Below, piece after piece: positions 1,039-6,376 of a stretch of 6,583 nt of DNA (position 1 is the stretch's first letter; every line of letters begins with the position of its first letter). The translations under genes and the position numbers were made by a program. The DNA comes from a virus. Lineage: Duplodnaviria > Heunggongvirae > Uroviricota > Caudoviricetes. The notes under the pieces are model-generated. The model saw only the letters and a program-made list of their open reading frames with translations, was not told the DNA's origin and did no database searches. The DNA lies in the IMG/VR virus record IMGVR_UViG_2671180921_000006; one strand, 5' to 3'.

Positions 1039-4719
<3,681 letters not shown>

Positions 4720-4745
<26 letters not shown>

Positions 4746-5265
4746 TCAGCAACCCCGGTATCAGTTCATCCAGCGCGGCTGCTTTGTTCATGGCTTTGAT
4801 GATATCCCGTTTCAGGAAATCAACATGTCGGTTTTCCAGTTCCGGAAAACGCCGCTGCACCGACAGGGGGATCCCGTCGAGAATACTGGCAATTTCACCT
4901 GCGATCCGCGACAGCACGAAAGTACAGAATGCGGTTTCCACCACTTCAGCGGAGTCTCTGGCATTCTTCAGCTCCTGTGCGTCGGCCTGCGCACGCGTAA
5001 GTCGATGGCGTTCGTACTCAATAGTCCCTGGCTGGAGATCTGCCTCGCTGGCCTGCCGCAGTTCTTCAACTTCCCGGCGCAGCTTTTCGTTCTCAATTTC
5101 AGCATCCCTTTCGGCATACCATTTTATGACGGCGGCAGAGTCATAAAGCACCTCATTACCCTTCCCACCGCCTCGCAGAACGGGCATTCCCTGCTCCTGC
5201 CAGTTCTGAATGGTACGGATACTCGCACCGAAAATGTCAGCCAGCTGCTTTTTGTTGACTTCCAT
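4720..5265 (-). CDS. nu1: Terminase small subunit gpNu1 (181 aa), cosB-binding winged-HTH protein
   Basis: ORF MEVNKKQLADIFGASIRTIQNWQEQGMPVLRGGGKGNEVLYDSAAVIKWYAERDAEIENEKLRREVEELRQ... recognised as lambda gpNu1. ATG at 5265-5263 sits immediately downstream (phage sense) of cosB. Confidence 0.95.
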
Positions 5266-5287
5266 TGTTCATTCCACGGACAAAAAC

Positions 5288-5303
5288 AGAGAAAGGAAAC
5301 GAC
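5288..5303 (-). promoter_or_regulatory. cosB R1 element
   Basis: Plus strand agagaaaggaaacgac; phage sense GTCGTTTCCTTTCTCT. Confidence 0.75.
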
Positions 5304-5330
5304 AAAGGCCAAAAAGCCCGTTTTCAGCAT

Positions 5331-5348
5331 CTGTCGTTTCCTTTCTTT
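5331..5348 (-). promoter_or_regulatory. cosB R2 element (inverted relative to R1/R3)
   Basis: Plus strand ctgtcgtttcctttcttt; phage sense AAAGAAAGGAAACGACAG. Confidence 0.75.
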
Positions 5349-5384
5349 TCAGGGGGTGTTTTAAATAAAAACATGAAGTTACAG

Positions 5385-5404
5385 CGAAGAAGAACGGAAA
5401 CGCC
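5385..5404 (-). promoter_or_regulatory. cosB R3 element
   Basis: Plus strand cgaagaagaacggaaacgcc; phage sense GGCGTTTCCGTTCTTCTTCG. Confidence 0.75.
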
Positions 5405-5436
5405 TTAAACCGGAAAATTTTCATAAATAGCGAAAA

Positions 5437-5460
5437 CCCGCGCGCCTTCCGCCCCGTAAC
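5437..5460 (-). other. cosN (terminase nicking site); cohesive-end 12-mer equivalent at 5443-5454, divergent from canonical lambda
   Basis: Phage-sense sequence is GTTACG-GGGCGGAAGGCG-CGCGGGTTTTCGC. Canonical lambda, as I recall it, is GTTACG-GGGCGGCGACCT-CGCGGGTTTTCGC. The flanks match exactly and six consecutive bases of the 12-mer differ. Confidence 0.65.
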
Positions 5461-5495
5461 GTTCTGGATTGCCGGAAAGGACCCGCCAGCCATTC
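5461..5495 (-). other. Right-end cos flank where cosQ would be expected
   Basis: Phage sense CGGGTCCTTTCCGGCAATCCAGAACGTTACG resembles the lambda right-end terminal sequence (CGGGTCCTTTCCGGTGATCCGACAGGTTACG, from memory) with several substitutions. The exact cosQ element was not pinned down. Confidence 0.35.
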
Positions 5496-5758
5496 GGGTT
5501 TACTTCGCAATGGGATTTAATATCTGAACGACCAAAGTCGTGCGACCACGGTCGCACAGACCTGAATACATGCCCTGTTTCTTCCACCCCCGCACAGGAC
5601 TGGCGAGCATGAGGGACAAACCCGCGAATCATAAACGCGGTAAAAACCCGGTGTGCATCGTTTTTGATTATTCCCGCACACTCGCGCAGAAGGAATTCCC
5701 CGTCGGGCTACGGTCATGGTTAATGCGGAAATACGGCGACGATACAGCGCATGATGTG

Positions 5759-6376
5759 TCAGGCTTGAATACCTTTATCGAATCCCGGTAATAAAAACTG
5801 TCCCTGTCTCTCCAGACGTTCCAGCTTTGCAAGCAATTGAGGTTTTTTCGTTCTCCCCCAGCGATTGAGCAGACGGCCTGACATGCTGGCGACATCCTTC
5901 TCTTTCATGTACTCCAGCATTACGGCGTTACGTTCTGCTTCATAACTTTCGCTGTACTTACGGAGTTCTGCTGACATCCAGTTAAACGCATTGATATAGG
6001 CTTCTTTAACAGCATCGGCTTTTGCCCCGTTAAATCCCATAACCAGCATAACGAAGCCACTAAAGTCCATGCGGTAGTAAATCTGTTTCTTGTCAAAAAT
6101 ACCTAAGTCATTGATTTTCTCGACGGCCCAAAAATGGGTTGTCGAGAATTCCTCAGAACATCTCAAACATTTAATAGCCCTAATCACATGCTGATGGCGT
6201 TTACCAAATGCCCTGGCAATCTGGAAGGTGTCAGTTACCGGTTGACCTTCTGCTGCGGTAACTAACTGGCGAAAGTCGAAGTCATGATTCGCAATTAATT
6301 CATTCATGGCGTTGCCTGCTTCTTTGAAATGAACCTTTGCCGCATAGGAAACCAGCCCACCGAGGCTCGCCAGCAC
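5759..6376 (-). CDS. Rha-family phage regulatory protein (Phage_pRha domain-like), encoded at the distal end of the right arm just upstream of cos
   Basis: 205-aa ORF with a GTG start at 6376; an alternative ATG at 6307-6305 (MNELIANHDFDF...) is possible. The segment FGKRHQHVIRAI...FSGFVMLVMGFNGAKADAVKEAYINAFNWMSAELRK fits the pattern I recall for Rha domains (FGKRHDNVLRDI ... GF.LL.MGF.GKKA...KEAYI.AFN). Same orientation as the packaging genes. Sampled lines of the gene are much more AT-rich than the head genes. Confidence 0.6.
   Translation of the reverse strand: MLASLGGLVSYAAKVHFKEAGNAMNELIANHDFDFRQLVTAAEGQPVTDTFQIARAFGKRHQHVIRAIKCLRCSEEFSTTHFWAVEKINDLGIFDKKQIYYRMDFSGFVMLVMGFNGAKADAVKEAYINAFNWMSAELRKYSESYEAERNAVMLEYMKEKDVASMSGRLLNRWGRTKKPQLLAKLERLERQGQFLLPGFDKGIQA

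Follow-up and report, generated by a model that had tools for sequence, protein, structure and literature searches.

A probable functional natural allele of the cosN right half in a lambda-type cos site of an Escherichia coli lambdoid prophage

The stretch of viral DNA analyzed here (hereafter the window; 6,583 nucleotides of IMG/VR record IMGVR_UViG_2671180921_000006) carries a lambda-type cos site in which the right half of cosN, at window positions 5443-5448, reads AAGGCG in place of the lambda CGACCT, and we regard this block as, very probably, a natural and functional allele carried by an E. coli lambdoid prophage. It is an ordinary and fairly common variant, a further allele of a known polymorphism, and neither a sequencing error nor a new mechanism. 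The novelty implied in a preliminary description of the same DNA was overstated, since Feiss et al. (2015; PMC4669245) had already called variation at bp 7-12 of the cohesive end common and without measurable effect on cos cleavage.

The minus strand of the window corresponds to the phage sense, in which the junction reads GTTACG/GGGCGGAAGGCG/CGCGGG, within the short context ...CAGAACGTTACG/GGGCGGAAGGCG/CGCGGGTTTTCGC... and the longer context ...GGGTCCTTTCCGGCAATCCAGAACGTTACG/GGGCGGAAGGCG/CGCGGGTTTTCGCTATTTATG.... The variant 12-mer GGGCGGAAGGCG occupies 5443-5454, its bases being numbered 1 to 12 from 5454 down to 5443, and lies within the 16-bp nicking site cosN (CGGGGCGGAAGGCGCG; 5441-5456, minus strand, string checked), which is composed of CG, the 12-bp cohesive-end sequence, and a second CG. 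Reading this strand confirmed the junction as first described, including the placement of bases 7-12 at 5448-5443. The left half of cosN (bp 1-6, GGGCGG; 5449-5454, minus strand), as aligned to lambda, was identical across all ten aligned cos sites (those of E. coli M18 and of nine phage records), and a 5'-CG-3' was retained beside each of the two nick positions, which lie 12 bp apart. Lambda-like phages are described as conserving these nick-flanking CG pairs along with the left half and cosQ (PMC4669245). Alignment of the right half (bp 7-12; 5443-5448, minus strand) to lambda revealed the changes 7 C>A, 8 G>A, 9 A>G, 10 C>G, and 12 T>G, with C11 kept. Of the six consecutive differences announced in the preliminary description, the replacement of CGACCT by AAGGCG therefore stands, but only five of the six bases differ, C11 being shared. 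The lambda 12-mer GGGCGGCGACCT given in that description is correct: the lambda derivative DE3 has it as its annotated 'cos site', and PMC12315714 cites the same sequence; the window carries GGGCGGAAGGCG at this position, which differs from it at 5 of 12 bases. The AAGGCG block is likewise distinct from the right halves of the N15/phiD326 type (CGTCCG) and the Gifsy-1 type (CAGCGT). The twofold symmetry of cosN amounts to 8/16 in the variant versus 10/16 in lambda.

The sequences around the altered block follow lambda closely. In the alignment, the GTTACG upstream of the 12-mer and lambda bp 13-70 downstream of it were 100% identical. The packaging-termination subsite cosQ (GGGTCCT; 5478-5484, minus strand, string checked) was found 24-30 bp upstream of the top-strand nick, that is, at the lambda position -30 to -24, and inside a GGGTCCTTTCCG block common to the same ten cos sites. 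Within cosB, the critical TerS binding site R3 (AGGCGTTTCCGTTCTT; 5390-5405, minus strand) corresponds to lambda bp 50-65, its extent being as given in PMC9026076, and is identical to lambda with the same spacing to cosN. It is followed by R2 (AGAAAGGAAACGACAG; 5331-5346, minus strand), which is inverted relative to R1 and R3, identical to lambda, and an arm of the R1/R2 inverted repeat, and by R1 (TTGTCGTTTCCTTTCT; 5290-5305, minus strand), which bears one change relative to lambda at its first base. The window thus holds a complex cosB, with R3, inverted R2, and R1 in order. Between R3 and R2, the IHF site I1 may be placed approximately at 5369-5383 (minus strand), a position assigned purely by analogy with phage 21, in whose record (M81255) I1 is annotated at bp 72-86 from the left end. 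The earlier claim that flanks and cosB are conserved is accordingly sustained for GTTACG, bp 13-70, R3, and R2, with one change in R1. Set against the cos of lambda, the window shares cosQ, the nick-flanking CG pairs, bp 1-6, bp 11, bp 13-70, R2, and the spacing, and differs in bp 7-10 and 12 of the cohesive end (AAGG.G in the window, CGAC.T in lambda). Across bp 13-200, ten mismatches to lambda were counted in 188 positions (~5%), and by our own arithmetic the chance of 5/6 mismatches at that rate is ~2e-6 per 6-bp window. Five changes within one 6-bp block hence point to allele replacement and not to scattered drift.

The genes adjoining this site, ordered from Pfam matches and from the annotation of close relatives, are in the phage sense the end of a lysis gene, Rha/ORF11CD3, cos, Nu1, A, W, B (portal), and the start of C. 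Nu1, the terminase small subunit (TerS; 181 aa; 4720-5265, minus strand), matched Phage_Nu1 (PF07471) with E = 9e-101, and the adjacent A, the terminase large subunit (TerL; 641 aa; 2820-4745, minus strand), contains an ATPase and an endonuclease domain (GpA_ATPase and GpA_nuclease; PF05876, PF20454). Both subunits are >99% identical to those of lambda: a single residue of 181 differs in Nu1 when compared with DE3 (180/181 identical) and four of 641 differ in gpA (637/641 identical), with no differences in W and five in the 533 residues of B. The assertion that the changed bases sit in the cosB-proximal half of cosN, beside a near-lambda Nu1/A terminase and a lambda-type cosB, is thus borne out. 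The sequence upstream of cosQ is unrelated to the lambda right end, so that the window has a mosaic structure in which the resemblance to lambda starts at cosQ. Within this upstream part, between the lysis genes and cos, a regulator with a Rha/ORF11CD3 domain is encoded at 5759-6376 (minus strand), which the annotation of relatives describes as an anti-repressor. Two further minus-strand open reading frames, at 5405-5632 (75 aa) and 5269-5493 (74 aa), run across cosQ, cosN, and cosB and showed no Pfam match, and the former was treated as spurious. A 'hypothetical protein' is annotated over the equivalent cos region in several deposited phage records, among them IdasGreatGrand, Kati, and Turner, and such cos-overlapping frames look like an annotation artefact.

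We then address whether the altered block is real. The ends of cos phages are often mis-assembled and the altered bases fall exactly on part of the overhang, which would agree with an assembly or sequencing artefact at the physical ends of the phage, the true sequence being the lambda 12-mer; no further supporting evidence for such an artefact was found. To determine how often the site occurs, we used a 36-mer across the variant, chosen to deny lambda-type sites any megablast seed. At 100% identity, this query was found in 155 of 5426 complete E. coli genomes, at 166 places (150 chromosomal and 16 on plasmids), the carriers including ETEC H10407 and E24377A. The corresponding lambda-type 36-mer was found at 7405 places in 4097 E. 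coli genomes, and the variant hence represents ~2% of the E. coli cos sites with the same flank. The variant was also present in two deposited phage genomes, YDC107_1 (CP025712; classified as Ravinvirus) and PhiR46_1 (PV340565), in 52 IMG/VR contigs whose flanks are of many kinds, and in a single species representative of Escherichia, Escherichia sp. E1V33, which is ~98% identical to the window over part of its length. In a chromosomal case that was inspected, the cos site lay inside an integrated prophage, away from any physical DNA end, and the same presumably holds for most chromosomal copies. The recurrence of an identical 36-mer in so many independently assembled complete genomes, mostly at chromosomal places, together with the two phage records and the differently flanked contigs, refutes the assembly error that the preliminary description had held out as an alternative, and leaves an artefact with practically no probability.

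A second reading in which the allele would have no function, namely that the window holds the decayed cos site of a defective prophage and that the changes are mutational erosion, draws on the fact that many E. coli lambdoid prophages are defective and on one of the carriers. In E. coli M18 (NZ_CP010219.1; 7001-7141 of the extracted locus L001), a defective prophage keeps a cos region 98.6% identical to the window, and its cosB is directly followed by lom and tail-fibre genes, Nu1 through J being missing. An intact-looking cos can therefore outlast the ability of a prophage to package itself, and the genome counts given above include dead copies. In the window, however, Nu1, A, W, and B are all full-length and 99-100% identical to the lambda proteins, and erosion would not alter five of six adjacent bases yet spare the 58 bp downstream and cosQ. 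The allele is also carried by deposited phage genomes such as PhiR46_1, presumably viable given that its GenBank record names a separate laboratory host (ECOR13), and by N15-like phage-plasmids with complete morphogenetic modules. We consequently judge decay to be very improbable, and a functional allele remains the preferred reading.

The AAGGCG block was found in association with diverse flanking sequences, comprising about 20 downstream and about 30 upstream haplotypes. Most copies adjoin a lambda-type cosB with a TerL 98-100% identical to that of the window, one copy adjoins a phage-21-type cosB, and four or five adjoin a third, unrelated cosB type, after which comes a Nu1-family protein of 183 aa but no neighboring gpA. 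The same haplotypes of the spacer between cosQ and cosN were observed with both AAGGCG and CGACCT, and the full-length relatives nearest to the window, at 98.4% and 98.1% identity, have a lambda-type cosN. The shared spacer haplotypes and the lambda-type closest relatives together indicate that the 6-bp block assorts independently of its flanks.

To place AAGGCG among other alleles, IMG/VR was scanned with the pattern GGGTCCTTTCCG-N16-CGGGGCGG-N6-CG, in which the left-half bases are fixed, so that the resulting census gives no test of left-half conservation. The first 120 matches, taken as an unbiased sample, comprised CGACCT in 98 cases (~82%), CAGCGT in eight, CGTCCG, AAGGCG, and CGTCCT in three each, and a few others. 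Six complementary scans, each excluding the lambda allele at a different position, provided the complete list of non-lambda alleles, which totaled 20 at bp 7-12 in 205 IMG/VR contigs. Within these contigs, AAGGCG was the commonest (52), followed by the Gifsy-1-type CAGCGT (50) and the N15/HK225-type CGTCCG (47). The intermediates AAGGCT, CAGGCG, and CAGGCT were also present, and GAGCGG lies, like AAGGCG, five positions away from lambda. The G/C content of the overhang was 9-11 of 12 in every census allele, with a nearest-neighbor duplex stability of -17 to -20 kcal/mol in the ten alleles computed. In the unbiased sample, the mean per-site entropy was 0.45 bit at bp 7-12, 0.72 in the cosQ-cosN spacer, and 1.1-1.4 in cosB. 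Hypervariability of bp 7-12, as expected under diversifying selection, was thus ruled out, these positions being less variable than the adjacent spacer, and the constraint on them is hence relaxed but not absent. In the non-lambda alleles, bp 11 was C except in those with CG at bp 10-11 and in CGAACC. These sequence patterns suggest that end stability, or a C/G at bp 11, is what is constrained, and not the precise sequence.

The exact 12-mer GGGCGGAAGGCG and its complement were absent from the searchable literature, in which only unrelated plant and Streptomyces papers were retrieved; outside that scope stands Vahanian et al. 2017 (Virology 509:140-145), reportedly a dedicated survey and the most likely place for AAGGCG to be listed. 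The allele is of the same kind as the natural alleles of N15, phiD326, Gifsy-1, and LLS/mEp213 (GGGCGGCGCGCT; PMC12315714), in all of which the changes are limited to bp 7-12. The differences from lambda fall at bp 9 and 12 in N15 and phiD326 and at bp 8, 9, and 11 in Gifsy-1 (PMC4669245), while the cohesive ends of phages 21, 4A7, and PhiR5_1 are identical to those of lambda. In contrast to the two or three changes of these described alleles, AAGGCG is five changes away from lambda, and, unlike them, it adjoins in the window what are essentially lambda's own cosB and terminase. The half changed in the window is the one shown to be tolerated by the engineered lambda cosN mutants (G2C versus C11G), which reveal a functional asymmetry of cosN and supply the mechanistic rationale that TerS at R3 anchors TerL (PMC4669245), but those mutants are single-base and laboratory-made; the window keeps C11 and changes five other bases in a naturally circulating site, whereas the C11G mutant changes C11 itself.

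The functional consequences of these mutants and hybrids support the tolerance of the right half. The C11G change is silent, the symmetric G2C change cuts the yield 10-fold, and lambda carrying the N15 cosN gives the same yield as the wild type (PMC4669245). Right-half changes have minimal effect because of the proximity of cosB, as the anchored terminase nicks without needing the local sequence (PMC4669245), in line with the TerL anchoring model, in which the top-strand nick is made by another TerL (Murialdo and Feiss 2022; PMC9026076). Applied to the window, Nu1 would bind R3, R2, and R1 of an essentially lambda cosB and would thereby hold one gpA endonuclease on the right half-site, its distance from R3 being fixed. 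This anchored gpA would nick the bottom strand between bp 12 and 13 largely whatever the local sequence, and a second gpA would read the conserved left half (CG/GGGCGG) and nick the top strand, so that virion DNA would bear 12-nt 5' overhangs of GGGCGGAAGGCG and its complement in place of those of lambda. In this proposal, the sequence, frequency, and contexts of the allele and the near-identity of the terminase come from our analysis, and the right-half tolerance and the anchoring model come from the literature, in which tolerance has been measured for single changes and for the 2-bp N15 allele rather than for a 5-bp block. We infer the nick positions, the overhang, and the efficient cutting of the AAGGCG allele, the first two because both deposited phage records are in prophage order. 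In this view, weak sequence constraint on bp 7-12 lets several alleles circulate among lambda-like phages, N15-like phage-plasmids, and satellites, with recombination shuffling the right-half alleles between backgrounds, and all alleles retain a G+C-rich, similarly stable overhang.

The terminase comparison is in agreement with this tolerance. No residues of gpA or Nu1 were found to co-vary with the cosN allele among lambda and the related phages compared. None of the four gpA differences of the window is common to PhiR46_1, which has the same cosN, and PhiR30_1, which has a lambda-type cosN, is as close to the window in the gpA comparison as PhiR46_1. Near-identical terminases hence adjoin both alleles, and there is no terminase co-adaptation to the AAGGCG cosN.

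Another consideration concerns the position of the bottom-strand nick. The variant creates a CGCGCG run at bp 11-16, and the extra CG repeats in GGCGCGCGGG offer other CG-flanked positions at which the nick could be shifted, with an altered overhang length. Such a shift would be favored by the low intrinsic specificity of the TerL endonuclease, which nicks inaccurately when anchoring is disturbed (PMC9026076). The spacing from R3 to cosN, reported to set the nick position, is nevertheless the same as in lambda, and the CG at bp 13-14 is conserved. Moreover, the alleles of N15 and HK225 likewise end in G12 and share the CGCG context, and the cohesive ends of N15 are treated as 12 bases, 2/12 of them differing from lambda (PMC4669245). 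A shifted nick therefore has only a slight probability, and cleavage at the lambda positions continues to be the expected outcome.

If cleavage occurs at those positions, the phage would likely produce a different 12-nt overhang annealing poorly with lambda ends, as the preliminary description had anticipated. One lambda-type and one variant end would pair at 7/12 positions (bp 1-6 and bp 11), leaving the base beside the bottom-strand nick without its partner. When 2/12 of the end bases are mismatched, chromosomes stay viable with a reduced yield (PMC4669245), and cyclization and ligation of chromosomes with mixed lambda and variant ends would probably be poor. The further claim that the phage would not co-package with lambda-type cos is, by contrast, unsupported. 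Packaging by a lambda-type terminase should not be blocked, because specificity lies in cosB and TerS, which are lambda-type here, and right-half changes have no measurable effect on cleavage or yield (PMC4669245).

The mismatch between ends nonetheless raises the question of whether cohesive-end alleles are kept by selection as compatibility types giving partial genetic isolation. Were this so, a phage with its own overhang would escape fruitless end-joining to lambda-type phage or satellite genomes in the same cell, recombinants cut from mixed concatemers would be purged, cosN would act as a small speciation-like barrier among recombining lambdoids, and the alleles would offer a simple handle on the genetic isolation of lambdoid phages. 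Five mismatches in 12 would leave only the 6-bp GGGCGG duplex, with the nick-adjacent base unpaired, and even two in 12 lower the yield (PMC4669245); in addition, many alleles coexist with their G+C content kept, and AAGGCG occurs in backgrounds otherwise ~98% identical to phages with a lambda-type cosN. The census speaks against such types in that bp 7-12 are not hypervariable relative to the spacer and cosB and that the lambda allele dominates the unbiased sample, and the free reshuffling across backgrounds is unlike the expectation under strong isolation. The published neutral explanation is, furthermore, sufficient (PMC4669245). We therefore hold selection for compatibility types to be unlikely, and favor a functional allele under relaxed constraint.

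The allele has some practical implications. AAGGCG, although of little consequence for the mechanism, constitutes a natural five-base test of the published view that the cosB-proximal half of cosN can vary almost freely because TerS anchoring, and not the local sequence, positions the nuclease. Searches with the lambda 12-mer GGGCGGCGACCT miss about 2-3% of the E. coli lambda-type cos sites, including those of the H10407 and E24377A prophages, and the proportion missed is larger in N15-like phage-plasmids and satellites. If variant phages are mixed with lambda in cosmid or in vitro packaging work, chromosomes with unmatched ends could result.

Additional observations concern the mobile elements in which the allele was encountered. 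Among the variant-bearing plasmids listed, which range from 46 to 68 kb, the 46-kb pEC21Z151-46K (NZ_CP101200.1; positions 19801-19836 of the extracted locus L186) is an N15-like protelomerase phage-plasmid that encodes a protelomerase and a CyRepA1 replication protein together with a lambda-type Nu1/A/head/tail module. Its cosB is of the lambda type, in contrast to the simple cosB of N15. A satellite-like element (locus L109; cos at 4086-4129, genes at 23-7641) also carries the AAGGCG cosN, and the same context was found in three further loci (L134, L165, and L170). Upstream of cos, this element encodes a D5-like primase, an SSB, homologs of capsid protein E and of gpD, and AlpA. After cos come a 'cosB' of unrelated sequence (GGTGGTGGTTTTGTTG) and a Nu1-family protein of 183 aa; gpA is lacking within 3 kb, and further on lie an Abi_C gene and then a truncated lambda E/FI/tail module. 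The Nu1-like protein of this context had no match in a PDB sequence search. At least eight distinct right-half alleles occur at sites whose downstream sequence is of the GGTGGTGG type.
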